Positions 19,198-54,073 are shown, numbered from the stretch's first letter. The stretch: 56,512 nt of DNA from Candidatus Hadarchaeota archaeon (GCA_964514965.1 CAZETV010000002.1:188545-245056), one strand, 5' to 3'. Translations and numbers: made by a program. Notes: generated from the sequence alone by a model not told the origin.

Positions 19198-19199
19198 AA

Positions 19200-24660: not shown

Positions 24661-24663
24661 TTG

Positions 24664-26771: not shown

Positions 26772-26807
26772 GCCCTACCCGAAAATCACTACAACCTCTA
26801 CCCTTAA

Positions 26808-26827: not shown

Positions 26828-26842
26828 TACCGAGGATAGACC

Positions 26843-28171: not shown

Positions 28172-28218
28172 GAATCTGGGGTTTGAAAAGATGAAATCCT
28201 CGGGAAAAAGGTGGAAAA

Positions 28219-29301: not shown

Positions 29302-29303
29302 AA

Positions 29304-30824: not shown

Positions 30825-30836
30825 GCGGGGATAGAA

Positions 30837-31271: not shown

Positions 31272-31276
31272 AATGA

Positions 31277-33282: not shown

Positions 33283-33310
33283 ATATCTGGTGTTTTCGTT
33301 GAAATCTATT

Positions 33311-35350: not shown

Positions 35351-35403
35351 GATGTATAGTAATGCAAAAAACTCGAACGGAAAATAAGTGGTAGTGTGTT
35401 CAG

Positions 35404-36779: not shown

Positions 36780-36803
36780 AGGGCAGCCACCCAAAATGAG
36801 GAT

Positions 36804-38354: not shown

Positions 38355-38451
38355 CAAATTGAACTTTTAGCCACGAAGCTGAAGATTCAATATGGGAAAA
38401 TTAAATGAGGTCAATGTTACATATGTTTAAACAATTTTTGGGGGAGAACAC

Positions 38452-39453: not shown

Positions 39454-39480
39454 GGACCAATCATTTTTAATCTATAGTAG

Positions 39481-39565
39481 TGCGGGGGACAGGATTCGAA
39501 CCTGCGAACCCCTTCGGGATGAGGTCCTAAACCTCACGCCTTTGACCTGACTTGGCTACCCCCGC
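39481..39565 (-). tRNA. tRNA-Leu (anticodon TAG), type II long variable arm, no intron.
   Basis: Revcomp GCGGGGG-TA-GCC-AAGTCAGGTCAAA-GGC-G-TGAGG-TTTAGGA-CCTCA-TCCCGAAGGGGTTC-GCAGG-TTCGAAT-CCTGT-CCCCCGC-A. Confidence 0.85.
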
Positions 39566-39808: not shown

Positions 39809-40209
39809 GTGGTCACCAGCTAAACTGCATTAACAATATCTGGAATTAAGTAATTAAAGTATCGAGCTCCGGCGATGTTTAAGTCCGACTACAATCCAGC
39901 TTCTCGCTTAAATTCGGGTCTTGTTCTATAAAACGCCATGAATGAGGATAAAAGAGTTATCAGGCTACTGACGAACAGTATCCACAGGCCCCAACGACTT
40001 CCTCCTCTTGCAAGATTTTCTATACTGTAGAAAAAAATAGAATCACCCCACAAACAATAGAGACACTGAAAATGCTTTTTCTAGGAATGGACTATCTGAC
40101 CACTTATAAACTCACTCAACCGTGCCAAGCGGCCCCTGGCAAAACTCGGGCTTGACTTCATCACTTGCCACAACCCTCACTCTGCTCACTTGTAGCCGAT
40201 TAAAAATAT

Positions 40210-40785
40210 TTAGTCGGAACTCGGTTCCAACAAATCCTTGCTCAAAATCGCGAAGGTGTCGCCACCAACCTGATAGAAGTTCCGGACTTTTTCAACATTC
40301 ATAAATCTACCGTCAAATGCGCCCTCGTTCGCGTACGCTGCGACCACCTCTCCCACGAATAGGGTATGATCTCCCGTGGTAATCTGGTTCACAAGCTTGC
40401 ACTCGAGATGGGCAACGCATTCTTCGACGATCGGAGATTTAACGACTTTTGCGGGCTTGGCAGTCAAACCAATCTCGGAGAACTTGTCATGCTCGCGCCC
40501 AGAGGCTCTGCCGCACTTGATTGCTTTGTCGAGGATTTCAACTGCGGGGATATTTATTACGAATTCTTTGGCGCGCGCGATTAGCCCATGTGAGTATCGG
40601 CGAGGGGCAACGAGAACCCCAACAAGCGGCGGGTTCGCGGAGAGTGGCGCGGCCCAAGCGATTGTAATTAAATTAGGCTTTCCAGTCGTAGGGTCGACAC
40701 AACTGACAAGGACGACCAGCCTCGGGTAAAGTAATCTATACGCTTTTTGGCTTGGCACTTCTATTTTTTCCATCCCAATCACCAT
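40210..40785 (-). CDS. Flavin reductase-like (FMN-binding split-barrel, flavoredoxin-type) protein.
   Basis: RLVVLVSCVDPTTGKPNLITIAWAAPLSANPPLVGVLVA...HTLFVGEVVAAYA. ATG at 40785. The track ORF 40210..40902 reads through the upstream tRNA. Confidence 0.7.
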   Translation of the reverse strand: MVIGMEKIEVPSQKAYRLLYPRLVVLVSCVDPTTGKPNLITIAWAAPLSANPPLVGVLVAPRRYSHGLIARAKEFVINIPAVEILDKAIKCGRASGREHDKFSEIGLTAKPAKVVKSPIVEECVAHLECKLVNQITTGDHTLFVGEVVAAYANEGAFDGRFMNVEKVRNFYQVGGDTFAILSKDLLEPSSD

Positions 40786-40787
40786 GG

Positions 40788-40899
40788 TGCCCCGGGCGGG
40801 ATTCGAACCCGCGTCACAGCCTTTCTTCGTTAGCAACTCGAAAGGGCTGTATGATTTCGGCGGAGATTTACTCCTTGACCGGCCTACACCACCGGGGCC
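40788..40899 (-). tRNA. Intron-containing tRNA, most likely tRNA-Glu (anticodon TTC).
   Basis: Acceptor GCCCCGG/CCGGGGC, T-arm GCGGG-TTCGAAT-CCCGC, anticodon stem CAGCC/GGCTG with loop CTTTCGA followed by a 16-nt insert (GTTGCTAACGAAGAAA). A further ~20-nt insert (GGAGTAAATCTCC hairpin) sits in the D-arm region. The genomic CCA overlaps the ATG of the next gene. Confidence 0.55.
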
Positions 40900-41026
40900 C
40901 AATACCGTTTATGTTTTAAATTATTAAACTCGACTTCTTTGGAACATTTCTCGACCACAAATTTTTTTACTAAGTCGGTGGGGCACCATTATCTGTTCAT
41001 TTGACAAATCTGAAATCTATTCAAAT

Positions 41027-41046
41027 GGTGGGCCCGAAGGGGTTTA
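41027..41046. repeat. Short copy (GGTGGGCCCGAAGGGG) of the tRNA-Met 3'-end sequence. Possible att remnant.
   Basis: Matches gggcccgaaggg of the tRNA-Met gene at 51031 and the copy at 42391. Confidence 0.4.
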
Positions 41047-41160
41047 TACTTTTCTAGGTGTGAGTCCATCCGATTTCACCCAAAAAAATTTCCTTCATTG
41101 TATAGCACCTGAACCAAGGGCCCCGTCTTAATAAAAATCGCGCCTAGGCCTCCGGGACGG

Positions 41161-41360
41161 GAGCGCCTACTCGGAGAACTACACCTACGACGACGCCAAC
41201 CAGCTCCTAGAGATCGTGGCCTCGAACAACAGCGTCACCACCCTGAGACTTATGACAACAACGGCGGCATGACCGGCATGGTGACCACGGTCGGGGGAAC
41301 CGTCACCGACAACATGGCCTACTTCTACGACTACGACGGCAGGCTGGTGCGGGTGGAGAA
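41161..41360 (+). pseudogene. RHS/YD-repeat protein gene fragment (high GC, no intact ORF).
   Basis: Translates to ...SYSENYTYDDANQLLEI... and AYFYDYDGRLVRVEN, which are YD-repeat motifs. Near-duplicate of 42069..42120. Confidence 0.5.
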
Positions 41361-41388
41361 CTTAGATTTAATCGACTCCCCCCCTGAT

Positions 41389-41655
41389 TTATTTTCCCTT
41401 GTACGCCCCACGCCTGTGTCTGACGTATTGAATTTCAACCGACGCCTCACTTACTATTCTGTAAATAATCCGATAATCCCCAGCTCGTAATTTCCAGTAC
41501 CCCTCCCATCCGCCGTGGAGCTTGTCGCCCGCCCTGACATCGTCAAACAATTCGTCCATCGCCAGCTCTATCCGCCGTTGCACATCCGTCGGGAGCTTTC
41601 TTATGTCCCGCATCGCCCTTCGGGTAAAAGAAATTTCAACCATGTTGACGCCCAT
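41389..41655 (-). CDS. relE: RelE/ParE-family type II toxin.
   Basis: FTRRAMRDIRKLPTDVQRRIELAMDEL...WKLRAGDYRIIYRIVSEASVEIQYVRHR. Confidence 0.8.
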   Translation of the reverse strand: MGVNMVEISFTRRAMRDIRKLPTDVQRRIELAMDELFDDVRAGDKLHGGWEGYWKLRAGDYRIIYRIVSEASVEIQYVRHRRGAYKGK

Positions 41656-41681
41656 CGTTTAAAACGATTCAGTACCAGCTC

Positions 41682-41972
41682 TCACTTATTTTTTACACTC
41701 AAGCGCGGGGGCTGACGCCCGAAGACTTCCTCGTAGGTATAAATCCTTCCGGCCGCAGAGTCCTCTTGGGCCTCTCTAAGCGCGCGCAGAGCACGAGGGT
41801 CTGCCATCTCCTCAAGGGTCGCCATTATGCTGTTGTATTCCTTAGCCCCAATAACCACAGCGACGGGCTTCCCCTTTCTGCTCACGACAATCTGTTTCCC
41901 CGCCTCGGCATCGCGAAGCAAGCGGGGCAACTTTCGGTTCGCTTCCCTCACTCCTACAACCCGTCCAACCAT
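41682..41972 (-). CDS. Phd/YefM-family antitoxin.
   Basis: VGVREANRKLPRLLRDAEAGKQIVVSRKGKPVAVVIGAKEYNSIMATLEEMADP. Upstream of relE with 26-nt gap. Confidence 0.75.
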   Translation of the reverse strand: MVGRVVGVREANRKLPRLLRDAEAGKQIVVSRKGKPVAVVIGAKEYNSIMATLEEMADPRALRALREAQEDSAAGRIYTYEEVFGRQPPRLSVKNK

Positions 41973-42068
41973 CTGGATCACCAGTAACAATCGCCGTTAT
42001 CATACTTATAGGTTTGTATCTTTGTCAATACAAATGTATGTACTAAGTGTGAGGTTGCCAAGGAGAAC

Positions 42069-42326
42069 ATGGCCTACTTCTACGACTACGACGGCATGCT
42101 GGTCCGGGTGGAGAACTCGGCGACCTGGCCCAAGCTGGTCGTGGAGTACGGCTACGACCCGCTGGGCAACCGCGTCCTGCGGCGTGAATATCGTCTCTAC
42201 GAAAACGGCGACAGGACCGGAGAGAACGACCTCTACTACGTCGACGACTTGGCCGGCTCTTTGACCCAGGTGCTCCAGGCGTCCGACAACGCGGGGCGCT
42301 GTCCTCTGCGTATAAGGAATCCATGA
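42069..42326 (+). pseudogene. RHS/YD-repeat C-terminal fragment.
   Basis: MAYFYDYDGMLVRVEN...YGYDPLGNRVLRREY. Isolated 85-aa ORF, GC-rich island. Confidence 0.5.
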
Positions 42327-42390
42327 AACGCGAGATCGTGAAAGAGCTTTCTATTGGGTCCGAAAATGACGAAATATTCTTACCTGGGCA

Positions 42391-42423
42391 GGTGGGCCCG
42401 AAGGGATTTAACCCGCCAACCAC
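42391..42423. repeat. Degenerate direct copy of the tRNA-Met 3' half (T-arm plus acceptor). att-like remnant 8.6 kb from the intact gene.
   Basis: gggcccgaagggatttaacccgccaaccacgaac vs gggcccgaagggattcgaacccttgaccactcgg at 51031. About 26/30 identical, same orientation. Confidence 0.55.
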
Positions 42424-42764
42424 GAACTTCTAGACCCAACTCAGAACCGCCTTGGAACCGACGCAATAAGCGAAAACGCTTTCGGGGGCCCACGCTATGA
42501 CCTCCCTGTGCGCCATGAACTGCCAATTTTTATTTATGAAACGTGGGGGATGAAGCTGGGGGCCGGATTATGCACCGTGGGTTTGGGTTCGATGGCTCAA
42601 GTGCGTTGGCGAGGCGCCGCACGGACTGCTCGCTGGGGAGGTTGAAAGAAATATACGAGAAGGCGGGGTTGAGGATGCTTTCCTAAGATTTAGACCTCAT
42701 GCGCAGCAATTGGTAAAATATCTGCACCTGTGTTGAGTAAAAAAATAAAAAGGGACGGAAAGAA

Positions 42765-43049
42765 TTACTTCTTTCCGAGCACTATTTCAATTGTTGAGAC
42801 GTTTGTTGCACCGCGTTCTCCTTGCATGGACTCGGTTCCTATCAAAATGTTCTTCACTATCATGTTTTGCAGGAATCTGTTTTTGGTGATCTCCGCAACG
42901 TCGACCGCTCTGCTAATCGCTTTGCCTCGTGCCTTGAGGGTGACGTCGCCGACACCCTGGTTGGCCTGCGTTATCACTGCAAGGACGTAGTTCATCACTA
43001 GTTTTATTCCAATAAAAACCACGTTTCCAGCGGCTCTTTGTTCTGCCAT
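42765..43049 (-). CDS. albA: Alba (Sso10b) DNA/RNA-binding chromatin protein.
   Basis: [52 protein letters not shown]. Confidence 0.9.
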
Positions 43050-43165
43050 AGTTTCTTACCTCCCCACGATTTGTCCAAATATTCTATGATTTCTAATCCT
43101 AAATTTTTTGGGGTTAATCCCTTGGCGAGGAACTACTTTATAACCTGACGAAGAAACCATGAGAA

Positions 43166-43831
43166 CTAGACTGGAAGTCTTAACACTACGATCTTTTGTT
43201 CCTTAGGTAAACTGTCTTTCGTGACGCTAAGGCCCGGACCATTGGTTTTCTCAACGGTTTTCTTACCTTTTAGAAATGCATCGAGGGCGATAGGCATCAC
43301 CCTTGACAACCACGGCGATGCACCTGAGAACCCTGTGTTGTAATGCATCGGTATAATTATTTTCGGGTCCAATTTGGTGATAACCGACCATGCGACATCG
43401 GGCCCTATGGTGGCTCCTCCCGCAACTGGTGTGCACAGCACGTCTACCTTGCCTATCTCCTTTGCCTGCTCCGCGGTCAGGTCGTGACCTAGGTCTCCCA
43501 AATGACACAGTTTGAGGCCGTCAAGCTGTACAGTGTAGACGCTGTTCTTCCCTCTTTGGCTGCCCCCAGCGTCGTCGTGTAGGGTCGCCACGCCCTTCAC
43601 TGGAATGCCTCCAACGTCCTTTGCGCCCACGAATCCTTCTAGGGCATCTCCTCCTTCTTTGAGGACCGGTTTTACGTTGTTGTGGTCCCTGTGGCCGTGG
43701 CTGCACAGGACGACGTCAGCTTTTGCCTTTGGCTCAGGTAAGCCGATCCCTCCGAAGGGGTCAAACACGATTGTAGCATTCTGTCCCCTCACCTCAAAGC
43801 ACGCGTGCCCATGCCATAGAATATTCACCAA
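43166..43831 (-). CDS. Metallo-beta-lactamase-fold hydrolase (UPF0173-like).
   Basis: NILWHGHACFEV...VLCSHGHRDH. Confidence 0.7.
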   Translation of the reverse strand: MVNILWHGHACFEVRGQNATIVFDPFGGIGLPEPKAKADVVLCSHGHRDHNNVKPVLKEGGDALEGFVGAKDVGGIPVKGVATLHDDAGGSQRGKNSVYTVQLDGLKLCHLGDLGHDLTAEQAKEIGKVDVLCTPVAGGATIGPDVAWSVITKLDPKIIIPMHYNTGFSGASPWLSRVMPIALDAFLKGKKTVEKTNGPGLSVTKDSLPKEQKIVVLRLPV

Positions 43832-43977
43832 AATACCCGCCCCCTTTCTAAATGCACCGAGTTTTAATAGTTGAACAAAGCCTTAACTTTTTCGCTCTCC
43901 TGGAGTTTGATGGCATGCTGAATTCTCCGCTTTAGACTCCACCTCCCAAACCATTGAATGGGAGGTGTGGAAAAAGC

Positions 43978-44277
43978 ATGACCACATACGTGGGTTTGGA
44001 TGTGCATCTGCGCACGTGCCACGCGACGGTGATGGACGAACACGGAAGAATCCTGAAGCAGGAGAAATTCCCGAACGAGCGTCCGGAGTTCGAGAGGGTC
44101 CTCAAGGGCATCGACGATGCGAAGGTCGCGATGGAAGCGTGCTACTGCTGGCAGCCCGTTCACGAGCTGCTCGAAACCTTTCTCGTAACCAGATTGCCTA
44201 TTGCGGCATTCAATATTCCTATTGTCGTCGTAGTTTTCATTTTTCATCAGGCCTCTTCCTTTGATATAACTCGGTGA
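43978..44277 (+). pseudogene. IS110-family transposase N-terminal fragment (truncated).
   Basis: MTTYVGLDVHLRTCHATVMDEHGRIL...AKVAMEACYCWQPVHELLE is the DEDD N-domain only. The 3' part is overwritten by the convergent radical-SAM gene. Confidence 0.55.
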
Positions 44278-45625
44278 CAAGGTAGTGCATCGCTTTTCTA
44301 AATATGAACCCTTTATCCTTTATCAAGTCCTTTGCTAGTGTTTTTGGACGAAGGTAAAATTTCAGGTAAGCCAATTTCAAAGCGTTTGCTATCTGAGACG
44401 CCGTGAGGTATTTTAATTTCATTACAGGGTCCAATGTTGTGAATTTTTTCCAGTTCGTTGTGAGAAGTAATTTTTCTTTCAAAGCATATGACCATAATTT
44501 CGTCCCCGGATAAGGAGTGGCTATGGTAAATTGGGCGAAATCAACTCCTACTTTTTTCGAAAAATTTATTGTTTTATTAACATCTTCCCCATTTTCCTCG
44601 GGAAAGCCTATCACAAAAGACCCCAGCGCATGCAGTCCAGCTTCCTTCGCGTTTTTCACGGCCAATCCCGATTTTTCCAGCGTGATCCCTTTCCCAATGA
44701 AATCGAGTGTTTTTTGGGAGCCTGATTCCAGGCCAAAGTATACGGTGTGGGCTCCTCCTTTTTTCATCGTGTTTGCAATTTCCGCAGAGAACGTGTCCAC
44801 TCTTGAAGACGCGGTCCAAGAAATATCCAATCCCTCTTCCCTTATTTTCTTGGCTATTGCGATCACCCTAGGTTTCAATAAGGTGAATGTATCATCCATA
44901 AATTCCACGTCGGTTTTACCGTATTCATGCCTGAGTATGGATAGTTCTTCCATGGTTCTCTCCACGCTGTGCCCACGCCATTTCTTCCCGAATTGCAGGG
45001 ATGAGGAGCAGAATATACAGTTGAATGGGCAACCCCTGCTAGTAATTATTGTCGCAAATTCAACTTTGCCCGACTTGTATTTTTTCATGGGAAGTAATTC
45101 ATAAGATGGAATTGGAATTGTATCGATGTTTTCTATCAGCTTTCTTGGCGGGTTATTTATTATTTTTCCGTTCTTTTTAAAAGTCAACCCATTTATCTTT
45201 TTAAAATCCGCTCCATTTCCGAGGGCATAGACCAGTTCTTTAAATGTGTCTTCCCCTTCCCCTCTCACGATAAAGTCTACATACGGGCATTCCTGCATGA
45301 TCCTCTCTGGTACAAAAGTTGCGTGTGGCCCTCCTAAAATAATATTAATGTTTTCATTTATCCCTTTAGCGATCTTTGCTATTTCGTATGCATCTGGCAT
45401 CATCGAAGTTGTCGCCGTTAAACCAACTATGTCAGGGTCTGAATCTCTTATTATCTTGGCCACATCTTCCCTTCCGTATCCTTCCGCAATTGAATCGATG
45501 ATTTTCACGTCATGTTCATCTTTTACCATTGAAGCAAGATATGCTAAGCCAAGAGGGGGCATGGTTTCGCCCATAACTCTTCTTACGGCGCTTTCTGTTG
45601 GGGGAGAAACCAGCATCACGTTCAT
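44237..45625 (-). CDS. B12-binding domain radical SAM enzyme (class B rSAM).
   Basis: N-terminal cobalamin-binding domain (PLGLAYLASMV...DIVGLTATTS), then SRGCPFNCIFCSS. Confidence 0.8.
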   Translation of the reverse strand: MNVMLVSPPTESAVRRVMGETMPPLGLAYLASMVKDEHDVKIIDSIAEGYGREDVAKIIRDSDPDIVGLTATTSMMPDAYEIAKIAKGINENINIILGGPHATFVPERIMQECPYVDFIVRGEGEDTFKELVYALGNGADFKKINGLTFKKNGKIINNPPRKLIENIDTIPIPSYELLPMKKYKSGKVEFATIITSRGCPFNCIFCSSSLQFGKKWRGHSVERTMEELSILRHEYGKTDVEFMDDTFTLLKPRVIAIAKKIREEGLDISWTASSRVDTFSAEIANTMKKGGAHTVYFGLESGSQKTLDFIGKGITLEKSGLAVKNAKEAGLHALGSFVIGFPEENGEDVNKTINFSKKVGVDFAQFTIATPYPGTKLWSYALKEKLLLTTNWKKFTTLDPVMKLKYLTASQIANALKLAYLKFYLRPKTLAKDLIKDKGFIFRKAMHYLVTELYQRKRPDEK

Positions 45626-45665
45626 GTTATCTCACTTTTTCTGGGTGGCCGGTCATATACCGGTG

Positions 45666-47189
45666 TTAGGCAGCCATCCGCGGTGGAACTTGGGATCTTG
45701 ATCTAGCCTGCTCGAGCTCCTGCCAGTAATGGATGTTGTGGATGCAACCCGGGTCGGGCGCCTGTACGTCCCCATAGTAGCCGTAGGCACGTGCCCTGCA
45801 CCCGCCGCATATGTACTTGTGTTCGCATTGGCCGCAGTTCTCCAGGGCATCGCGGTTCCTGAGCTTCCAGAGGAGCTCCGTGGAGTCCCAGATATCGCGC
45901 AGCCTGTCCTTCCTTATGTTGCCGAGCTTGATGGGCATGAAGACGCAGGGGGTTATGTCGCCGTTAGGTTCGAGCCCGCAGTACAGCCTTCCGGCCCCGC
46001 ACCCCCCTAGGAACTCCGCGAGGCTCTTTGTCCGCCCCTGTAGCGCACTCATGGCAGCGCGGTTCGTGAAGTGCGTGGCCACCACCCCGACCGCATCGTT
46101 GCCCAGAGCGTACTCCCAGGAGACGGTGGAGTACTGGGGCGCAGTCGAATAGCATATCATCTTGCAGTTGCTGTCCATCATCCTGTTGTAAAGGTACTTG
46201 AGGAGCTCCTGCCTGTCCTCCGGGCTTAGGTCCTGTTCGGTGATTTCCTTTCCCCTCCCCGTCGGCACGTAGTTGAATACTATCACGCGTCCAACTCCGA
46301 GCTCCTTCTCGGCGAAGTCAACCAGCTTCGGAATCTCGTGAAGGTTATAACGAGTTGCGGTGAGGGCAACGCAGGTGTCAATCCCTTCGGCAACGCAGTT
46401 CTTGATTCCCTCGCATGTGCGCTTCCAGGCCCCGGGCACCCCCCTGAACTTGTCGTGGGCCGCCTCGAATCCATCGAGGGAGATTTCAGCGTAGCCGAAA
46501 ACATCCTTCATCTTCTTGGCCATATCCCGCGTGATCAGCGTTCCATTGGTAGCGACTGAGGTGTAGAACCCCCTGCTTTTCGCGTATCCGGCGACTTCAA
46601 AGATGTCCTTCCTCGTTAACGGCTCTCCCCCTGAAAAGGCGATGGCAACCACGCTGGCATCTTCGAACTCGTCGATTACGTGCTTGGCCTCCTCGGTTGT
46701 GAGTTCGTCCTCCATCGCCTTCGGTCCTGCATTCTCATAGCAATGCTCGCACCGCAGGTTGCATAACTTTGTATAGTTCCAAACGACCAGGAAGGGCGCC
46801 ACGGAGATGAAGGGCCTTCGAGTGCCGTAACGCGCGATGCCCTCCAGCACGTTGACCATGGCGCGCCTTATCATCGGGTCCGACATGTTTTCCTTCAGAT
46901 TGGAGTCAGAATAACCGAAGGCGTTTGCCCCGTGATCAAGCACGAATTTAACGATTAGTGAGGCGAGAGCGTCCTGCACGTCGCATTTAATTTCCTCGCC
47001 GGTATATTTACGAAGAGCAATATCGAGCCTGTTGCCTCCCCCCCTGCTTCGGCCACAGACTAATCTTAGCATGGCCCTTGAGACTGGGTTATCGAGCCAA
47101 CGCTGGACATGGCCAATTACCGCATCCTCAGTCCTAACCTCAGCTCCCACCTTGATGCTTTTGTTGGAGGCCATTCTATCCACCCCCAA
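45666..47189 (-). CDS. Radical SAM enzyme with C-terminal SPASM domain and ~130-aa N-terminal extension.
   Basis: CNLRCEHCY core; SPASM cysteines CGQCEHKYICGGCRARAY. Confidence 0.8.
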   Translation of the reverse strand: MGVDRMASNKSIKVGAEVRTEDAVIGHVQRWLDNPVSRAMLRLVCGRSRGGGNRLDIALRKYTGEEIKCDVQDALASLIVKFVLDHGANAFGYSDSNLKENMSDPMIRRAMVNVLEGIARYGTRRPFISVAPFLVVWNYTKLCNLRCEHCYENAGPKAMEDELTTEEAKHVIDEFEDASVVAIAFSGGEPLTRKDIFEVAGYAKSRGFYTSVATNGTLITRDMAKKMKDVFGYAEISLDGFEAAHDKFRGVPGAWKRTCEGIKNCVAEGIDTCVALTATRYNLHEIPKLVDFAEKELGVGRVIVFNYVPTGRGKEITEQDLSPEDRQELLKYLYNRMMDSNCKMICYSTAPQYSTVSWEYALGNDAVGVVATHFTNRAAMSALQGRTKSLAEFLGGCGAGRLYCGLEPNGDITPCVFMPIKLGNIRKDRLRDIWDSTELLWKLRNRDALENCGQCEHKYICGGCRARAYGYYGDVQAPDPGCIHNIHYWQELEQARSRSQVPPRMAA

Positions 47190-47793
47190 AAGTAGAAGTG
47201 ATCTTTGACCAATCCGCAGCCCATCGGATCTGGTTGCCGTACTTGTCCATGAGCAGCAAATGCCTGGCCGGGAAGGGGAGTTCGTCCAAGTTCGTTATCA
47301 ACGGCGTTGGGGGGTTCCTGGCGATGCTGTCGCCATTGCGATAGCATATGCCGGTTACTGTGGCTAGGCCGCCGCCGCTTTCGAGTGCTTTCGTCAGATT
47401 GAGCATAGTTCTTTCCCCTTCGCCGACGCAAACCGCATCCAGCTGGGGACACCCTTTCAGGGTTTCGGTCGGGAGGAACGTGGGGTGTGCGCCGCCCATT
47501 ACAGTAAAGGCGTCCGGGCAGGACTCCTTGGCTATACCCATGGCGGCCATCGCGCCGTAGATTGTCGGCGTTACGGCCGTTGTGCCCACGATGTCCGGAT
47601 TCTCCTTTCCCAGTCGCGCTTTCAATTCCGCGGGCCCGATGCACGTCGCTGGGACGTCTATTATCCCGACCTCGTGCCCAGCCCCCTCGAGAACCGCAGC
47701 TATGTACGCCAGTCCCATCGGAGGCATCAGGATCTTGAGGTACTCCTGAACTTCCATCCCCGGCGAAGCGGGGTTGATTAATATTACCTTCAT
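47176..47793 (-). CDS. Standalone B12-binding domain protein (possibly the truncated 5' half of a class B rSAM gene).
   Basis: KVILINPASPGMEV...PPMGLAYIAAVLEGAGHEVGIIDV...DIVGTTAVT...FPARHLLLMDKY, then the ORF ends just where the CxxxCxxC would be expected. Overlaps the next rSAM by 14 nt. Confidence 0.55.
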   Translation of the reverse strand: MKVILINPASPGMEVQEYLKILMPPMGLAYIAAVLEGAGHEVGIIDVPATCIGPAELKARLGKENPDIVGTTAVTPTIYGAMAAMGIAKESCPDAFTVMGGAHPTFLPTETLKGCPQLDAVCVGEGERTMLNLTKALESGGGLATVTGICYRNGDSIARNPPTPLITNLDELPFPARHLLLMDKYGNQIRWAADWSKITSTFGGG

Positions 47794-47883
47794 TTTGCCA
47801 TCCCCTCAGGGCTCGGCGGTTTTCGCCCGCCCGGGTTCGGGGGCCATATGAGTACCGCCTTTATGCTCGATGCGCCCTCCGTT

Positions 47884-48336
47884 TCATCCCCTAGGCCGGG
47901 ACATCTCTTCCCGGAGCTTCTCAAGGAGATTGCGTAGTGTCCTCCGTTCGTCTGTCGTGAACGCTCGAAAGACGTTCCGCATGTACTCGCTGTACCTCGT
48001 AGCTACAATTTCTTGCACGGCTTTCCCCTTGGGGGTGAGCTCTATGATGGTGGCCCTCCTGTCTCCCCGTCGCGCCATCCTCTTTAGGAGCCCCTTGGAC
48101 TCGAGCCTGTCGATTATCCCGGTGATGTTGGCCGGAGTCACGAGCATTTCATCGCTTATCCCCTTCATCGGCGTCGCGCCATTTTTGGCAACTATCCTCA
48201 ACACCCGGAACTGCGGCTGAGTCAGCCCTTCCTTTAAAAGCATTTCTGTGATGCTGCATTGCATCACCTTGTACGTCGCTATGACGGCGTTGTATGTCTC
48301 GTTGGGATGTCCCGCTGGTCCTTCTCCTTTGGGCAT
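47884..48336 (-). CDS. MarR-family transcriptional regulator.
   Basis: LTQPQFRVLRIVAKNGATPMKGISDEMLVTPANITGIIDRLESKGLLKRMARRGDRRATIIELTPKG. Start placed at the internal Met (TATA-like box about 25 nt upstream, probably leaderless). Confidence 0.75.
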   Translation of the reverse strand: MPKGEGPAGHPNETYNAVIATYKVMQCSITEMLLKEGLTQPQFRVLRIVAKNGATPMKGISDEMLVTPANITGIIDRLESKGLLKRMARRGDRRATIIELTPKGKAVQEIVATRYSEYMRNVFRAFTTDERRTLRNLLEKLREEMSRPRG

Positions 48337-48895
48337 GTTGTAAAATAAGTTAGTCAAAGTATAAATAGTTAAGTCATTAACTGTTTCTTTGGTTATACCT
48401 TGAACGCAAGCAGCATAGGCTCTGAAATGGTCCCCTTCAGAGGCACACGAGAACCCACAAAGGCCCGTTTTTCCGGGCCTGAAACGAGCGAGCCAAGGCC
48501 CGCAATCGCAGTGATACACGAGGTATGGGGAGTTAGTAAACCACACAAAGGACGTAACGAACAGATTCGCGAGGGAGGGATACGTGGCGCTCGCTCCCAA
48601 CTTCTCCTCGTGTCCAGAGCTGGCCTCGCTGCTCACACCTCAGAATATTGGCATCACGATGGGTTTCGTTCAGACACTGCCTGCCGAGAGGAGGGCGGAC
48701 ATGGTTTATGCACGGCAAGAGTCTGCAAAGCAACCGGCCGGGACGAGAGATGTGGCACAGAGGATGATGAGTAAGATGTTTGGAGGAATGCAGAAGGACG
48801 CTCCCACAAAAGAAGCGGTGAAAGTAGTGGACGTGTTATATCGCGGTTAGGAGCTTGCGCGCTTTAGCCCCTGCTCGAACTCGAGGTGCAAAAGA

Positions 48896-50716
48896 ATGGT
48901 CGAATACAAGTGGGTCGCCCTCTCCAACACCACCCTGGGCGTGCTGATGGCCACGATAAACGGATCGATAACCCTGATCTCTCTGCCAGCGATATTTCGC
49001 GGGATTAACATCGACCCCCTCACATCTTTTCAGTACCTGTTGTGGATTCTCTTCGGCTACAGTATCGTCACGGCCTCCTTGCTCGTCATGTTCGGACGGA
49101 TATCCGACATGTACGGGAGGGTGAAGCTGTACAACATGGGGTTCTTAATCTTCACGGCAGGTTCCATACTCCTGTACTTTACTCCAAGCGGCGGAGACCT
49201 CGGAGCATTAGAAATAATCTTCTTCAGGATAGTGCAAGGACTGGGCGCCGCCTTCCTCTTTGCCAACAGCGCGGCAATTATCACCGATGCCTTCCCCTTC
49301 AACGAACGTGGTAAAGCCTTGGGCATAAACCAAGTAGCAGCAATGATCGGCTCCATCGCGGGGCTCATCCTGGGCGGAATCCTGGCGGCCTTCGACTGGC
49401 GTTACGTCTTTCTCGTCAGCGTGCCCGTTGGTATTTTCGGGACAATCTGGTCGTACCGGAAGCTCAGGGAGCTCGCTGCGATACGGAAGAACCAAAAGCT
49501 CGACCTCTTGGGCAACGCCCTGTGGGGTACGGGTCTCACCGTGATCCTGCTGGGGGTGACGTACGGGTTGATCCCGTACGGAGGCTCAACCATGGGCTGG
49601 GGCAACCCCTGGGTAATCACCGCGCTCATATTCGGCGTTGCGCTGCTGGTGGCGTTTCCCTTCGTAGAGGCCAGGGTAAAGGATCCGATGTTTAGGCTGG
49701 GGCTGTTCAGGAACAGGATGTTCAGCGCCGCAAATTTCGCCGGGATGCTTGCAGCCATCGGCAGAGGAGGGGTCATGATCATGCTGATAATACTGCTACA
49801 GGGAATATGGCTCCCGCTCCACGGATACAGCTATGAATCGACGCCCTTCTGGTCCGGCATATACATGCTGCCCCTGTTGGCTGGTTTTGTTGTCATGGGA
49901 CCGCTGAGCGGCTGGCTCTCGGACAGATACGGTGCCCGGGGCCTCTCCACGCTTGGGATGCTGATCACGGCGGTCACCTTTTTCGCGCTCGCGGCCCTTC
50001 CTTACAACTTCGACTATTTGCCCTTCGGCGTGATCCTCTTCGTGCAGGGTATCGGGGGTGGGATGTTTGCGTCTCCAAACACGGCATCGATCATGAACTC
50101 CGTTCCCGGAGAACACCGCGGCGCCGCTTCGGGGATGAGGGCGACACTCCAGAACACAGCGACGACGGTGAGCCAGGCGCTGTTCTTCACCATCGTGATT
50201 TTCACCCTCGCCAACAACCTGCCCAGCGCCTTCTCGGCCGCCTTCACGAGTGCCGGCGTGCCCCAGCTCGGTTCGGTCTTCGCCCAGACTCCGCCGACCG
50301 GGGCTCTCTTCGCTGCCTTCCTCGGCTACAACCCTGTCGGCAGCATCGTCTCGCAGCTCTTGCTCAACCAGAGCACGGCCTCGTTGGTGTCGTCTATTCC
50401 GCCGCAGACCCTGAGCTACCTGACGGGCAACACTTTCTTCCCGACCGCGATCGCCCCTCCGTTTATGGGCGCACTGAGTTTCGCCTTCTACGTCGGCCTT
50501 GGCCTCTCCGTTGCGGCCGCGGTCTCGTCCCTTTTCCGTGGCAGGGTTTACATATACAAAAAGGAGGTGACTGTCGCCCCCAAGCCTCCCGTCCTTCCGC
50601 CGATAACGGGGCAGGAAAGCGATGCTCAAAACCTGAGCGGCAAAGGAGATATGCGAAAGGCCCCCCGTGGCGCGATTGGATTAGAACCTTCGCCGCGCAA
50701 GGAGGGGGATGACTAA
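48896..50716 (+). CDS. MFS transporter, 14-TMS DHA2/EmrB-like efflux pump.
   Basis: [11 protein letters not shown], multiple hydrophobic spans, 606 aa. Confidence 0.85.
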
Positions 50717-50753
50717 TTGAGTCAACAAGTCTACAATTATTACTCTAGACGGA

Positions 50754-51056
50754 TTGAGGAGCGTTTACGCCAACGCGAACATGAACATCAGGCAACGGCC
50801 CGCAATCTCCAAGATAGACCAGCTGAAAGTTTTCGCTCAAGGCCTGGGGTTGAATCCCGATCAGATCATCATGTCCGGCGCATTGGCAGAACCACACAGG
50901 GCCATAGTGACTCCGGGCGACTTGGAGGCTTGGCAGGTACAAACCCTATCCTCGGCTCTGAAGGAAACCCTCAAAAACGAGATTATTTCCGAGCTATCGT
51001 TTGGGTCCAAAGGTATATGGTTAGAGGAATGGGCCCGAAGGGATTCGAACCCTTGA
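50754..51056 (+). CDS. Hypothetical ORF running into the 3' end of tRNA-Met. Paralogous to the segment at 716..900. Candidate N-terminal fragment of a tRNA-targeting, SSV-type partitioned integrase, or a decayed gene.
   Basis: IDQLKVFAQGLGLNPDQIIMSGALAEPHRAIV shared with 716..900. The last 26 nt of the ORF are tRNA-Met sequence. Confidence 0.3.
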   Translation: MRSVYANANMNIRQRPAISKIDQLKVFAQGLGLNPDQIIMSGALAEPHRAIVTPGDLEAWQVQTLSSALKETLKNEIISELSFGSKGIWLEEWARRDSNP

Positions 51057-51125
51057 CCACTCGGTTATGAGCTTCGCCCAACTTAAGCAGCTGTCGAGCG
51101 CTCTAACCAGCTGAGCTACGGGCCC
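51030..51125 (-). tRNA. tRNA with anticodon CAT (elongator Met or Ile2) carrying a ~22-nt intron immediately 5' of the anticodon loop (non-canonical position).
   Basis: Revcomp GGGCCCG-TA-GCTC-AGCTGGTTA-GAGC-G-CTCGA-[CAGCTGCTTAAGTTGGGCGAAG]-CTCATAA-CCGAG-TGGTC-AAGGG-TTCGAAT-CCCTT-CGGGCCC-A. G1:C72, so not an initiator. Confidence 0.7.
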
Positions 51126-51209
51126 TGTACCAACTTCTCTAAGGATTGATTAAAACATTTGCTAAACAATATTAAAATGGAATCGCACGAATTATTATAA
51201 GGTGGAGAC

Positions 51210-52196
51210 TTGGCTGTAAAAATTCTATCTCACGGCGACACCGATGGCGTATGTTCAGCAGCCCTCGCTAAGGCGCGCTTTCCCAATGCAGAAGTTTGGT
51301 TCACCCGCCCGATAACACTCTTGCGCGACCTCAACACAATTAACATCGGCAACGTAGTTTTCATTTCAGATATCGCAATAAGCGAGACCCATAAAGAGGA
51401 GATATTCAAGCGCATGCGTGAACTTGCGCAGAAGGATGAAGTCATCTACATCGACCACCACCCGCTCCCCCCCAATACTCTGAAGAGGGACATCCCGGCC
51501 ACGCAGTCTGCTCATGAGATAGGCACGAGTGCTTCGGAGATTACCTTCCGATTTTTTAAATCAGACATAAACCCAGATTTGGACCGAGTCGCATTGTGGG
51601 GCGCGATTGCCGATTACTGCGAAGAGACCGAGTTCGTGCGCGATGGAATGAGCAAGTACGACAGGCGAACAATCTACATGGAGGCAGGGCTGCTTACCCA
51701 AGCGCTGGGCGAGGCTGCAGGCGATTATCACTACAAACGCGATGTTGCACTCAAGCTAGCGCGGGGCGACCCCCCAACGGAAATCCCAGAAATTGTCGAC
51801 CGGGCAATTAAAGCAACGAAACGTGAGTGGGAGGTATGGCGGTACGTCAAGGAACATGTAATACGTGAGGGGAATATTGCGATTATCTATGACTTGCCCT
51901 CCGGCAGCCTCGGGAAAGCGGCGCTCTACGCGCTGGGAACGACTGGCGCTAATGTTGGAATTTGCACCCGAAAAGACGACGACGAGATAGACGTGAGCAT
52001 GCGGCGCCGGGCAGGGGCAAAGATCGACCTTAACGAGATGCTCCGCCACATCACCGCTCGCGTAGGAGGCTCTGGAGGTGGGCACGAAGGAGCCGCTGGT
52101 GCGACTATTCCGGCCGACCTCTTTGACTCTTTCTTGGATACAATTAAGAAAGAAATCTCGCCTGTGATAAGCAGGAACTTTACACTCAAGAGATAG
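51210..52196 (+). CDS. DHH-family phosphoesterase (NrnA/RecJ-like, DHH plus DHHA1).
   Basis: ILSHGDTDGVCSAA, YIDHHP. Confidence 0.75.
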   Translation: MAVKILSHGDTDGVCSAALAKARFPNAEVWFTRPITLLRDLNTINIGNVVFISDIAISETHKEEIFKRMRELAQKDEVIYIDHHPLPPNTLKRDIPATQSAHEIGTSASEITFRFFKSDINPDLDRVALWGAIADYCEETEFVRDGMSKYDRRTIYMEAGLLTQALGEAAGDYHYKRDVALKLARGDPPTEIPEIVDRAIKATKREWEVWRYVKEHVIREGNIAIIYDLPSGSLGKAALYALGTTGANVGICTRKDDDEIDVSMRRRAGAKIDLNEMLRHITARVGGSGGGHEGAAGATIPADLFDSFLDTIKKEISPVISRNFTLKR

Positions 52197-52275
52197 CTAG
52201 AACAAATCTACCTCAATAATTCTCTAGGCCTAACCATCACAACAATGCGTGAGCCTTCTCGTGCTAGATACTTTG

Positions 52276-52441
52276 TGGCGCCGGGGAGAGGACTCGAACC
52301 TCTGACCGCCTGGTCGCTGTACACAAGCATGTCGTCCCCGGTAATTGAGGTTCGTTCTTCATCCATGCCAGGTTTAACAGCCAGGCGCGTTCGGCAGGCG
52401 CAGAATTAACTGTAGCCTACTACCTACTGCGCCACCCCGGC
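52276..52441 (-). tRNA. Probable tRNA-Asn (anticodon GTT) interrupted by a ~64-nt intron at 37/38 and a second ~29-nt insert in the D-arm. CCA encoded.
   Basis: Acceptor GCCGGGG/CCCCGGC-G-CCA, T-arm AGAGG-TTCGAGT-CCTCT. Anticodon stem CCTGG/CCAGG with loop CTGTTA|A separated by about 64 nt. D-stem GCGC then a 38-nt stretch before the 3' D-stem. Confidence 0.5.
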
Positions 52442-52548
52442 GCCGTAGGATATATCCCAACTTTAAACATATAAGGCATCTTTAAATATCTCGGGGATTG
52501 TTGGAACCGATCATTTAAACCATTTTTACATTCTTTGAGCTTGCCGCT

Positions 52549-53304
52549 TCAAATTTCCAGTATCGCCTTCCGGCACATCTTTCTAAAAGTTACTCTGAGA
52601 TTTACTTTATTATCAAAATTCTTAGCTTTTTTGCGCAGCCTCGCCCGCGGCTGATACGACAAACACTCAGCCGTTTTTATTAGAAGTGGCATAGCACGAA
52701 CTATATTGTCAACAATCGTAATGTCCGCCGCCCGTGCAGTCCTTGACAACGGATTCAGGTCAATCGCAATGATGTGTTTTCCGAGTTTTTTCAAAGTGTC
52801 CGTTCGATCGCCATCCTCGAGCGGAACTAGAACGACATCCGCAACAGCGATTCCCCTCCGGTCAACTTTCCTTCGATCACTATAGATCTCATTTATCCGA
52901 ATCGAGAACTTTTTACCAGACCCGAGCACCTCTTTTACTCCATGTTTTCGCAACCATCGGGCTATTGCTGCCTCACGTTTTATTGAACCATGAAATAGAT
53001 TGACCTCGACTTTCGCGTTTGTTACTTTCGCCAGTTTTGCAATATCTTCCGGCACGAGCGCCGCTACGTTGCCGTTCACAGAGATTACAGGATGTTTTGC
53101 CAAGAGGAGCATTGCAGCCGCGGCCTCGATAGCGTGTCGGGCGTGCTTGGTCGTTTGTTCGCCCAGCATATAGTCGAACGCCTCACCCCGACCGTGCGCC
53201 GCCAGTCCCTCAGGTACAACTAATCCAGCATTGAATCCATCGACGAGCCGCTCACGAATGCGTAAAGACTCCGCGCGAGGATGCAAAGGAGAAACTTTGC
53301 TCAT
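52549..53304 (-). CDS. Conserved archaeal protein, possibly phosphopantothenate synthetase-like (COG1701).
   Basis: 251 aa. GEAFDYMLGE motif. Family call is from memory only. Confidence 0.3.
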   Translation of the reverse strand: MSKVSPLHPRAESLRIRERLVDGFNAGLVVPEGLAAHGRGEAFDYMLGEQTTKHARHAIEAAAAMLLLAKHPVISVNGNVAALVPEDIAKLAKVTNAKVEVNLFHGSIKREAAIARWLRKHGVKEVLGSGKKFSIRINEIYSDRRKVDRRGIAVADVVLVPLEDGDRTDTLKKLGKHIIAIDLNPLSRTARAADITIVDNIVRAMPLLIKTAECLSYQPRARLRKKAKNFDNKVNLRVTFRKMCRKAILEI

Positions 53305-53384
53305 CTGATCATCGATAAATTTCCCCTCGTTCGTTTAAATCTGACTATGAAAAGCTTTTTTGGGCAGGCAAAACCATCTCAAAA

Positions 53385-54062: not shown

Positions 54063-54073
54063 AGGGATCGTTC

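Follow-up and report, generated by a model that had tools for sequence, protein, structure and literature searches.

A probable fossil genomic island, with signs of tandem integration, at the 3′ end of tRNA-Met in a Hadesarchaeon

Background

How do partial copies of a tRNA gene come to lie kilobases from the working gene on an archaeal chromosome, and what does the DNA between them represent? The question is raised by a 56,512-nt stretch, hereafter the window, from a Candidatus Hadarchaeota archaeon (GCA_964514965.1, CAZETV010000002.1:188545-245056), in which an earlier note made from the sequence alone described two degenerate copies of the 3′ half of tRNA-Met, 8.6 and 10 kb from the intact gene, and proposed successive tRNA-targeted integrations followed by decay. 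Here, the repeats, the intervening genes, and the orthologous sites of related genomes are examined together.

Results

Repeats of the tRNA-Met 3′ end

The intact, intron-bearing tRNA-Met(CAU) gene occupies 51030-51125 on the minus strand and matches the full Rfam tRNA model at 56.7 bits. Its intron is non-canonical, its sequence is 98.9% identical to the allele of the related locus L003, and it differs from every relative in that CCA is not encoded. The 3′-terminal 16 nt of the gene, TGGGCCCGAAGGGATT (51030-51045), recur exactly and in the same orientation at 42393-42408, and TGGGCCCGAAGGGGTT, identical at 15 of 16 positions, lies at 41029-41044, again in the same orientation, where the earlier note had placed a shorter copy near 41027. 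The note was also right that the copy it placed at 42394 has the orientation of the gene; its estimate of about 85% identity was somewhat too high, as the copy spans 31 nt at 77% ungapped identity to tRNA-Met. The two distal copies are closer to each other (19/20 identical, GGTGGGCCCGAAGGGrTTTA) than either is to the tRNA gene. The shared core is short (13-16 nt), and similarity of the arms outside it was not significant. An additional copy of the resident tRNA-Met 16-mer was found in none of 18 related loci that have tRNA-Met beside the DHH gene.

Given a core of only 16 nt in a metagenome-assembled contig, the repeats might be put down to chance or to a chimeric contig joined at short repeats, and we regard this as scarcely credible. 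Three sites match the 16-mer with two or fewer mismatches versus 0.07 expected, and 0 of 100 dinucleotide shuffles reached three, placing the repeats far above chance. The segments 42299-42414 and 50946-51052 are moreover alike for approximately 95 nt past tRNA-Met, into the adjoining ORF, so the copy at 42393 is no chance match. As for a chimera, 16-nt repeats are far below assembler k-mer sizes, and independent Logan contigs, which break at an IS110 fragment (43954-44277), match 42067-44175 and 44146-54388 at 100% identity, thereby covering the middle (in L031) and tRNA-proximal junctions, two of the three. The distal junction was sought in independent assemblies and found in none; its breakpoint falls on exactly the base at which the tRNA ends in the empty sites described below.

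Empty sites in relatives

The left chromosomal flank holds a tRNA-Glu(UUC) gene with two introns (40788-40898, minus strand; Rfam tRNA, 42.9 bits), which ARAGORN missed in the window and places at the same site in L008 and L011. At least 12 related Hadesarchaea have an uninterrupted run of flavin reductase, tRNA-Glu, a spacer, tRNA-Met, and DHH, with flavin reductase and tRNA-Glu only 300-450 bp from tRNA-Met and DHH and with 60-250 nt between the two tRNA genes. The spacer that follows tRNA-Glu in the window (40899-41028) is the ancestral one; it is colinear with those of L002 and L005 and aligns with the relatives' spacers up to the base before the copy at 41029, which itself sits where L002 and L005, at their empty sites, have the tRNA-Met 3′ end. 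The blastn breakpoints against L002 (3178-4132 matching 40096-41044 and 4117-5673 matching 51030-52580) overlap by exactly the 16-nt repeat. Together, the empty sites and the spacer alignment indicate that 41045-51029, approximately 10 kb, was inserted at the tRNA 3′ end in this lineage. The relatives compared do not have the genes of this segment beside tRNA-Met; their presence there without repeats would have counted against the earlier proposal.

By these coordinates, 41029-41044 (plus strand) would be attL, representing the original tRNA-Met 3′ end after its displacement, and the intact gene attR. The former is still preceded by a genomically encoded CCA (TGG on the plus strand). The ancestral CCA is thus kept at attL, element-derived sequence replaces it in the working tRNA-Met, and this pattern fits recombination within the core. 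The middle att (42393-42423, plus strand) consists of the exact 16-nt core and 15 nt of degenerate, T-arm-like sequence, which we interpret as the core with a second element's attP arm behind it; GG precedes this att, as at the position of the ancestral CCA.

Integrase tails beside the att sites

The search for integrase remnants that the earlier note had recommended recovered two C-terminal tails. The first ('ORF100', 50745-51056, plus strand) ends with 27 nt antisense to the tRNA-Met 3′ end and was identified by BLASTP, with 51% identity (E 2e-27) to residues 392-476 of P0004, a 490-aa Phage_integrase protein, and by a profile search that returned 207 homologues and placed the match at the C-terminus of full-length proteins (474-507 aa). 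The second (42284-42392, plus strand; ALSSAYKESMKREIVKELSIGSENDEIFLPGQV) reads on into the middle att and is 45% identical to residues 96-129 of P0005 (BLASTP, E 2e-6), a relationship also found by tblastn. Nucleotide identity between the tails is no more than about 70%, and each reads the att core in a frame of its own; the tails therefore derive from two different elements rather than from a recent duplication. Both begin after Y384, the catalytic parts having been deleted, and for this reason the remnants themselves cannot display the catalytic residues. Eight family members used as tblastn queries gave no N-terminal integrase fragment next to attL or on the right-hand side of the middle att, and the 10 kb contain neither an intact integrase nor any gene for replication, capsids, or conjugation.

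The full-length family to which the tails belong comprises tyrosine integrases of roughly 480 aa, with a Pfam Phage_integrase domain (PF00589) and a C-terminal extension of approximately 100 aa whose last codons enter the att site. R231, K264, H353, R356, H379, and Y384 (P0004 numbering) are invariant in 13 full-length homologues. Full-length ORFs stop 0-60 nt from or inside antisense tRNAs (L029, L044, L046, L092, L097, and others), in L029 19 nt inside the tRNA. ARAGORN detected an antisense tRNA at or near the integrase stop in 17/88 family loci, and an independent scan for antisense T-arms located one between −60 and +80 nt from the stop in 17 of 79 loci (background, 0.85%). L045 combines an MCM helicase and a full-length integrase with an attP-like sequence, TGGGCCCGCGGGGATTTATAC, which is not a tRNA and resembles the attL junction of the window, GGGGTTTATAC. 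A putative attP is TGGGCCCGAAGGGRTTTA. Integration leaves the integrase gene of this family intact, att being located beyond the ORF or at its end, as in classical integrases; the gene is not split into Int(N) and Int(C) as in the SSV type, and the tails lie upstream rather than downstream of att. A placement in the pNOB8-type subfamily (R...YxxR...Y) was considered and rejected: the family has HSLR, i.e., HxxR instead of YxxR, and so acts like the classical type without being filed as pNOB8-type.

Gene content of the two segments

The segment between attL and the middle att (41045-42392, 1.35 kb; no strand assigned), absent in relatives, is the older remnant under the model proposed below, and Pfam matches agree with the RHS/YD fragments and the RelE/Phd pair noted there earlier. 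A frameshifted YD/RHS-repeat pseudogene fragment (41148-41362, plus strand) ends in a 55-nt repeat, and a further fragment (42063-42290, plus strand) opens with the other copy of that repeat (95% identity), its 3′ end being fused to the integrase tail at 42284-42392; this fragment shares 86% nucleotide identity with a fragment in L030 that is also fused to an integrase remnant. The reconstructed RHS sequence matches RHS_repeat (PF05593) at 43.3 bits (E 4.6e-11). A working Rhs gene was rejected: only about 120 aa of YD repeats survive, and because these are frameshifted, interrupted, and truncated, they are best described as pseudogene fragments. Between them lie a ParE/RelE-superfamily toxin gene (41389-41655, minus strand; PF05016, E 2.3e-12) and a Phd/YefM antitoxin gene (41682-41990, minus strand; PF02604, E 1e-13), on the same strand with the antitoxin upstream and a 26-nt gap, a pair predicted from its domains to form a type II toxin-antitoxin system.

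The segment between the middle att and tRNA-Met (42424-51029, 8.6 kb; no strand assigned), likewise absent in relatives, is a cargo mosaic and would be the younger remnant. It contains a conserved motif of roughly 45 nt (42558-42605, plus strand; ..CCGTGGGTTyrGkTTyGAyGGCTCAAGT) common to two other loci with integrase remnants. Domain matches bear out the gene list of the earlier note, comprising an Alba chromatin protein (42765-43049, minus strand; PF01918, E 7.7e-16); an N-terminal fragment of an IS110-family transposase (43954-44277, plus strand; positions 1-49 of 155 of PF01548); three radical-SAM/B12 genes, namely a B12-binding radical SAM enzyme (44237-45625, minus strand; NCBIfam matches to the BchE/HpnJ class, all below equivalog cut-offs), a radical SAM/SPASM enzyme of the NirJ/AhbD type (45666-47189, minus strand), and a B12-binding-domain protein, truncated or stand-alone (47176-47793, minus strand; PF02310, E 2.9e-24); a MarR-family regulator (47884-48636, minus strand; PF01047); and a DHA2-family MFS efflux transporter (48896-50716, plus strand; GC3 0.76), the nearest named homologues of which belong to Nitrososphaerota and Thermoprotei MAGs (Thermoproteota-type), outside Hadesarchaea. 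Two genes can be added to that list, the two-intron tRNA-Glu at 40788-40898 and an MBL-fold metal-dependent hydrolase (43166-43831, minus strand; PF13483, E 3e-47). The latter has 81-86% nucleotide identity to L032-L034, confined to the gene, and its orthologues in other Hadesarchaea-like contigs occupy unrelated chromosomal contexts.

GC3 ranges from 0.44 to 0.76 in the 8.6-kb segment, and it reaches 0.70-0.84 in the RHS, radical SAM/SPASM, B12, and MFS genes versus 0.48-0.63 in the flanking genes. The foreign signal in composition and phylogeny is confined to part of the island. Alba and the MBL hydrolase resemble normal chromosomal genes of Hadesarchaea rather than element genes, and the island is therefore a mosaic, not decayed element DNA alone; part of the 8.6-kb segment may derive from other recombination, e.g., mediated by IS110.

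These two host-like genes, together with the occurrence of Alba some 10 kb upstream of DHH in L023 and L024, two distant relatives, are what could be said for an ancestral origin of the 10 kb, with relatives having lost it through recombination between direct repeats that would be tRNA pseudogene duplications and not att sites. By DHH identity, the window is sister to L002-L006, with L007-L012 outside, and because empty sites occur in both groups, one gain is more parsimonious than the two or more independent, precise losses that ancestry needs. The repeats also comprise nothing but the tRNA 3′ end, and an integrase tail adjoins each; the GC-rich cargo has a foreign composition; and the structure would, even then, have arisen by integration. 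We consider an ancestral origin very improbable.

Discussion

Absence from orthologous sites, a distal direct repeat, and a recombinase remnant at att are the properties of a genomic island, and we conclude with good confidence that 41045-51029 is a fossil one, formed in a Hadesarchaeon by mobile elements that integrated site-specifically at the tRNA-Met 3′ end. The most economical reading is that there were probably two related elements, integrated one after the other in tandem, the number and order of events being deduced from the arrangement of the remnants. On this model, each element would have carried a tyrosine recombinase of roughly 480 aa, with the gene ending inside its own attP, which would mimic the final 13-16 nt of the tRNA, comprising the discriminator, the 3′ acceptor-stem strand, and the beginning of the T-stem. 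A crossover between this attP and the tRNA would insert the circular element and duplicate the core; the integrase-proximal end would then keep a complete tRNA (attR, 51030), and the original 3′ end would be displaced to the opposite border (attL, 41029). The first element would have entered in this way and a related second element next, into the regenerated tRNA, such that the integrase tail and core of the first were left as the internal att at 42393.

Decay is evident from the anatomy of the remnants. Of either integrase gene, nothing upstream of the catalytic tyrosine region is left, the first element being reduced to 1.35 kb of YD/RHS pseudogene fragments with the ParE/Phd cassette between them and the second becoming an 8.6-kb mosaic of the host-like Alba and MBL genes, the IS110 fragment, and GC-rich, foreign radical-SAM/B12, MarR, and MFS genes. 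With no functional integrase left, the island should no longer be able to excise by itself, and its mobility is predicted to be lost. The repeats, empty sites, and integrase tails thus support the successive integrations and decay that the earlier note had envisaged.

A single integration could have produced the same arrangement had the incoming element been a composite already holding the internal integrase-tail/att scar, for instance a tandem array from an earlier host that was excised as one unit. The outermost repeats (41029 and 51030) alone would explain the insertion relative to other genomes, and archaeal tandem arrays do excise and recombine as composites (PMC8371274). The middle att, however, has the exact 16-nt core of the host's own tRNA-Met allele with GG before it, as expected if the second element entered the regenerated tRNA; this observation is not decisive, and we hold a composite to be unlikely. 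We accordingly retain two tandem integrations as the working model.

Events of this type are ordinary, and the documentation of this one is unusually good. As in classical (type II, lambda/pNOB8-paradigm) archaeal integrations, a tRNA is the target, a direct repeat lies at the distal end, an intact tRNA is regenerated, and the integrase gene of the family is unsplit and beside att. The loss of the integrase and trapping of cargo in the chromosome likewise parallel 'gene capture in archaeal chromosomes' (She et al. 2001, 2002, and 2004, as summarised in PMC8371274). The host phylum here is Hadesarchaea, and a full-text literature search yielded no paper on integrative elements of this phylum. 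The core also differs, being 13-16 nt versus the 40-50 bp of Sulfolobales pNOB8-type sites (PMC8371274), as does the integrase, which combines the canonical HxxR with a C-terminal extension of approximately 100 aa where the pNOB8 type has YxxR.

The SSV-type 'suicidal' integrases, those of SSV1 and of pTN3 and pT26-2 of Thermococcales (PMC7253208, PMC8371274), are likewise archaeal and tRNA-targeting, with att translated within the integrase ORF. In that type, att lies inside the gene and Int(N) and Int(C) are split to opposite ends of the element, whereas here the very 3′ terminus of the gene holds att and full-length genes stand beside tRNAs (L029, L044, L046). Other counterparts are the integrated mobile elements of Thaumarchaeota (Krupovic et al. 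2019, PMC6563490) and the short att sites of SNJ2 (cited in PMC8371274), with which the present case shares short att cores (8-13 bp), intron-containing tRNA targets, elements with MCM helicase, and many decayed remnants with metabolic cargo. The host lineage and integrase family are different, and the present remnants are two in tandem, with YD/RHS fragments as cargo. Bacterial tRNA-linked genomic islands (Williams 2002, cited in PMC8371274) resemble the present case in using the asymmetric 3′-terminal region of a tRNA as attB, in their tandem arrays, and in their decay to integrase-less islands; the host here is archaeal and the target tRNA has an intron. Finally, scattered tRNA fragments in Caldiarchaeum subterraneum were attributed to recombinase-bearing insertions (Sugahara et al. 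2012, PMC3293823), where a partial tRNA copy also lies kilobases from the working gene by way of a recombinase-encoding insert and where tRNA introns are polymorphic among related genomes. The fragment in that case is a 5′ one lying beside a 1.8-kb transposable unit, whereas those in the window are 3′-end fragments at classical attL-type borders.

Copies of the tRNA-Met 3′ end and the empty site

A tRNA gene with an intron and the anticodon CAU was called by both ARAGORN and Rfam on the minus strand at 51030-51125, and the intron-free alleles of its relatives are called tRNA-Met(CAT) by ARAGORN. The plus-strand start of this gene is its 3′ end, TGGGCCCGAAGGGATT, and copies of this 16-mer recur in the same orientation at 42393-42408 (exact) and 41029-41044 (one mismatch), giving three sites in 56.5 kb at up to two mismatches versus 0.07 expected from dinucleotide-preserving shuffles. 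The copy at 42393 is 77% identical to the T-arm over 31 nt; its position and orientation were reported correctly in the earlier note, and the identity of ~85% given there was slightly generous. Its similarity extends leftward for ~95 nt into the open reading frame (ORF) that precedes the tRNA (42299-42414 versus 50946-51052). The 42393 and 41029 copies match each other at 19 of 20 positions, including flanking bases that are absent from the tRNA. Given their rarity among shuffles, the extended similarity, and the match between the two distal copies, the copies of the tRNA-Met 3′ half to which the earlier note drew attention are real. No second copy of the locus's own tRNA-Met 16-mer was present in any of the 18 relatives examined.

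The DHH-family gene to the right of the tRNA (51210-52196) retrieved 26 loci from Hadesarchaea/Hadarchaeota MAGs at 56-94% identity. In the related loci L002, L004, L005, and L007-L012, just 300-450 bp separate this gene from the flavin reductase gene (40210-40785 in the window), and the gap holds a tRNA-Glu, a short spacer, and tRNA-Met, and nothing more. The window's spacer (40899-41028) is colinear with those of L002 and L005 up to ..CAAATGG/TGGGCCCG, and blastn alignments stop at 41044 and restart at 51030, their overlap being exactly the 16-nt repeat. The colinear spacer and these breakpoints identify 41045-51029 (9,985 bp) as an insertion, hereafter the island, at the 3′ end of tRNA-Met, and the copy at 41029 (attL) as the end that the gene originally had, now displaced. 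By DHH identity the window groups as sister with L002-L006 (93-94.5%), and L007-L012 fall outside (85-86% to both); since both groups show the empty state, parsimony favours a gain in the lineage of the window. Logan assemblies of run SRR14802574, produced independently, cover 42067-44175 and 44146-54388 at 100% identity and confirm the middle and tRNA-proximal junctions; exact look-ups with ParE, a Zn-ribbon protein, and flavin reductase found no independent contig on record across attL. Rfam, run at E values up to 1 on 38-53 kb, found no structured RNA in the island besides tRNAs.

Several features of the surrounding tRNA genes were also recorded. The tRNA-Glu(UUC), which has two introns (40788-40898), scored 42.9 bits in Rfam and was missed by ARAGORN, and the long TTG-start ORF that crosses it (40210-40902) is artefactual upstream of the genuine start of flavin reductase. 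LAGLIDADG-type endonuclease ORFs adjoin tRNA-Met in some relatives (L003 9086-9835, L006, and L014 6994-7770), and the presence and position of the tRNA-Met intron, the stem sequences, and the spacer types form a mosaic among close relatives, which suggests gene conversion or homing at this locus. On the minus strand, ~52270-52440 is 93.6% identical to L007 versus 77-79% in its flanks and aligns with ARAGORN tRNA-Val(GAC) genes of L008 and L012; neither ARAGORN nor Rfam called the window copy, whose D region contains an additional insertion of ~23 nt and which probably represents a tRNA with several introns.

Integrase remnants and their family

The ORF that reads into tRNA-Met (50754-51056, within tail 2 at 50745-51056) has no Pfam match, and a word-indexed protein search with it returned only itself and one 82-aa fragment. 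This homologue starts with MGHTIDTYHD, and the frame upstream reads ..SYVEYMMGHTIDTYHDV, resembling box II of tyrosine recombinases. A scan of metagenome and viral contigs with a two-sequence alignment of the tail ORF gave no match; the family was exposed solely by an exhaustive profile search with the tail ORF, which yielded 207 matches. Among these, proteins of 474-507 aa match the tail at their extreme C-terminus and carry Phage_integrase, with the N-terminal SAM-like domain present or absent, and R, K, HxxR, H, and Y are invariant in 13 of them. The tail-2 ORF aligns with residues 392-476 of the 490-aa member P0004 (51% identity, E 2e-27), and the translation of 42284-42392 (tail 1) aligns with the tail of another member, P0005 (E 2e-6), including a ..GQVGP.. 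segment that overlaps the tRNA. On these tail-only or internally deleted matches, all three integrases of the window are pseudogenes, and both island copies are without any catalytic domain. The 91-100-aa 'hypothetical protein' annotated beside tRNA-Met is such an integrase pseudogene. An SSV-type split integrase, which an ORF reading into a tRNA would suggest, was rejected: the ORF is the C-terminal tail and not the N-terminus, it lies upstream of the att site, and the other border has no complementary fragment. A tblastn search with eight members of the family found the third, internally deleted copy (491-937), which runs into tRNA-Pro(GGG) at 948-1023, and no copy in the window beyond these three remnants.

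Members of the family are ~480 aa long; their catalytic residues are canonical, and the coding sequence of their C-terminal extension runs into the target tRNA. In the family-carrying locus L029, the end of the full-length P0004 gene lies 19 nt within an intron-containing tRNA in antisense orientation, amid ordinary chromosomal genes, and L030 has the same arrangement with a tRNA-Pro-like gene. Relatives returned by an alignment-driven scan number 8 among IMG/VR viral contigs and at least 535 among metagenome contigs. For 17 of the 88 loci retained, ARAGORN called an antisense tRNA at the integrase stop or close to it (Trp, Ile, Leu, Gly, Asp, Lys, Val, Gln, and Pro, plus one odd Asn(att) call), and by an independent motif scan 17 of 79 loci have an antisense T-arm between -60 and +80 nt from the stop, versus a background of 0.85%; both counts are lower bounds, since intron-rich archaeal tRNAs are often missed. 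From this geometry, the family behaves as a classical non-suicidal tRNA-targeting integrase whose ORF runs into attP. Unlike the SSV type, it has an unsplit gene, and the opposite border carries no N-terminal fragment; unlike the pNOB8 type, it has no YxxR signature (consensus definitions from PMC8371274).

Locus L045 encodes an MCM-family helicase together with a full-length integrase, and behind them stands TGGGCCCGCGGGGATTTATAC; this non-tRNA sequence has the look of an attP and is similar to the attL junction of the window (..GGGGTTTATAC..). The arms beyond the core gave scores that were reached by 49 of 1000 shuffles for attL against the middle att site, and by 576 and 974 for these two against L045, so arm similarity beyond the core is not significant, and the shared part is limited to the TTTAyAC directly behind the core. 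A search of viral contigs with the attP sequence GTGGGCCCGAAGGGRTTTA gave no match. In the representative library, one family match, the 290-aa protein P0020, has a Phage_portal_3 segment fused to an integrase tail; together with the eight IMG/VR relatives, this indicates that at least some elements with a family integrase are probably tailed proviruses.

Proposed order of integration

Three junctions share the core. At attL the core is preceded by the ancestral flank with its encoded CCA and followed by TATAC..; at the middle att site (from 42393) it stands between integrase tail 1 and TAACCCGCCAACCAC..; and at attR it stands between integrase tail 2 and the rest of the tRNA. Under the proposed reconstruction, element 1, with an attP of tail 1, core, and TATAC.., would have integrated first, and element 2, with an attP of tail 2, core, and TAACCC.., would next have integrated into the regenerated tRNA gene. 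The attP sites expected are (tail)-TGGGCCCGAAGGGrTT-TATACTTTTC.. for element 1 and (tail)-TGGGCCCGAAGGGATT-TAACCCGCC.. for element 2. The junction order supports this scheme, being what two successive integrations into a functional tRNA would be expected to leave. One insertion of a pre-formed composite element would draw on the tandem arrays and composite excision known for archaeal elements (PMC8371274); we regard it as unlikely here. The two tails are only ~70% identical in nucleotides, and each translates the core in a frame of its own (VGPKGF versus WARRDSNP), which argues that they are distinct relatives and not products of a recent duplication. Successive tRNA-targeted integrations followed by decay, as first proposed from the repeats, are thus supported by the empty sites, the junctions, and the integrase tails.

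The CCA end of tRNA-Met (TGG on the plus strand) is encoded in every relative and is retained beside attL at 41026-41028; the working tRNA-Met of the window has GAA of element origin in its place (51027-51029). This pattern fits a crossover inside the 13-16-nt core. With the encoded CCA lost, the window's gene depends on the CCA-adding enzyme.

Cargo of the two segments

Segment 1 (41045-42392) consists of frameshifted YD/RHS-repeat fragments, whose reconstructed sequence scores 43.3 bits against RHS_repeat and whose GC3 reaches 0.84, interrupted by a 700-bp ParE/Phd cassette. A 55-nt direct repeat of 95% identity (41308-41362 and 42063-42117) brackets the cassette inside the YD/RHS pseudogene and would result either from a toxin-antitoxin insertion with a long target duplication or from recombination between YD repeats. 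The second YD/RHS fragment is directly fused to integrase tail 1. The same fragment, at 86% nucleotide identity, occurs in L030 (704-1270; a contig of GCA_041643135.1) from an unrelated metagenome, where it joins an integrase remnant in frame, at another point and across a shared GYD codon triplet (..VVEYGYD/LRVHSLRKFF..); the junction suggests that microhomology mediated a deletion between a YD gene and the integrase next to it. From the near-identical fragments in the window and L030, YD/RHS genes seem to be recurrent cargo beside the family integrase.

Segment 2 (42424-51029) holds, in order, a ~45-nt motif, Alba, an MBL-fold hydrolase, an IS110 N-terminal fragment, a B12-binding radical SAM gene, an NirJ/AhbD-like radical SAM/SPASM gene, a B12-domain ORF, MarR, and an intact DHA2 MFS transporter, right after whose stop codon the integrase is cut off; the gene content noted earlier between 42.4 kb and the tRNA (IS110, radical-SAM/B12, MarR, MFS, and Alba) was all recovered. 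No replication, structural, or transfer genes were found in the segment. GC3 in the MFS, rSAM-SPASM, and B12 genes is 0.70-0.76 versus 0.48-0.63 in the flanks, and the nearest named homologues of the MFS protein (73-78% identity) are annotated to Nitrososphaerota or Thermoprotei MAGs. Orthologues of the MBL gene occur in other Hadesarchaea-like contigs at 81-86% nucleotide identity limited to the gene, in contexts that are unrelated to each other and have no adjoining Alba. Segment 2 is therefore a mosaic of foreign cargo and host-like genes. Alba and MBL were rejected as a conserved pair in relatives, as MBL alone is conserved and its contexts vary.

The IS110 transposase fragment (43954-44277) overlaps the 3′ end of the B12-rSAM gene, and its sequence is probably repeated elsewhere in the genome, since two Logan contigs break there (44146-44175). 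A ~30-45-nt motif (..CCGTGGGTTyrGkTTyGAyGGCTCAAGT) without an Rfam match lies close to the integrase/att module at window 42558-42605, L030 649-695, and L001 1556-1583, all three of which carry family integrase remnants.

Relation to known archaeal elements

For archaeal elements and their 'gene capture', an asymmetric 3′-terminal tRNA region serving as attB, tandem arrays, decay to integrase-less islands, and short cores such as those of SNJ2 or thaumarchaeal elements are established (PMC8371274; related cases in PMC6563490 and PMC3293823). The island fits this picture in its attB, short core, tandem order, and decay; it brings no new knowledge of the mechanism, and specialists would find it unsurprising, although it is a clean, well-controlled example that helps annotation and the curation of MAGs. 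What is new is the host phylum and the integrase family with its C-terminal extension, a full-text literature search having found no description of integrative elements in Hadesarchaea. These archaea are known from metagenomes only, and the locus provides base-resolution evidence that they acquire genes via tRNA-targeted elements. Accessory DNA amounts to ~10 kb, or to ~45 kb of the 56-kb window when two other insertions are counted, and it would be unsafe to take the island's Alba gene for the ancestral one.

Other insertions in the window

Relative to sister species, the window has at least three insertions. An 18.1-kb insertion (21355-39468) relative to L002, L003, L005, and L007 sits exactly at the 3′ end of tRNA-Leu(UAG) (39480-39565), with a short degenerate repeat, CTATrGTrGTGCG, at the far border. 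It encodes CTP synthase (pyrG), GMP synthase (guaA), and an NrpR-like regulator at a low GC3 of 0.37-0.51, no integrase of the ~480-aa family was detected in it, and some of its genes have homologues upstream of DHH in L023 and L024, which are distant relatives. Insertions with a tRNA end or a direct repeat at the border, some of them with housekeeping or host-like genes, might reflect integrase-mediated relocation of core genes. The full form of this reading, which we consider unlikely, is that the family captures and relocates core genes among tRNA sites and Hadesarchaeal lineages, in the manner of specialised transduction, and that the YD/RHS link marks a family of Rhs-toxin-carrying archaeal elements. 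The relocation part draws on the tRNA-Leu insertion with pyrG and guaA and on the tRNA-Met island with its host-like Alba and MBL genes, and the Rhs-toxin part on YD/RHS fragments found with the integrase in unrelated metagenomes (the window and L030). If relocation held, such islands would not simply be places where foreign cargo has been deposited.

A 16.5-kb insertion (3385-19891) relative to L003 and L005 is flanked by a ~27-nt direct repeat (TTAGCGCTTGAATTTCGCT..; 3358-3384 and 19892-19918) that is not a tRNA, and its right border differs among relatives, since L002 aligns already from 18992. It encodes a PadR-like regulator, Hsp20, and a GvpL/GvpF gas-vesicle protein, and a gas-vesicle gene in a Hadesarchaeon seems to deserve attention of its own. 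Over 1-1023, relatives align from tRNA-Pro onward only, so another element probably lies left of the window; 1-323 is a 120-nt tandem repeat of 2.7 copies.
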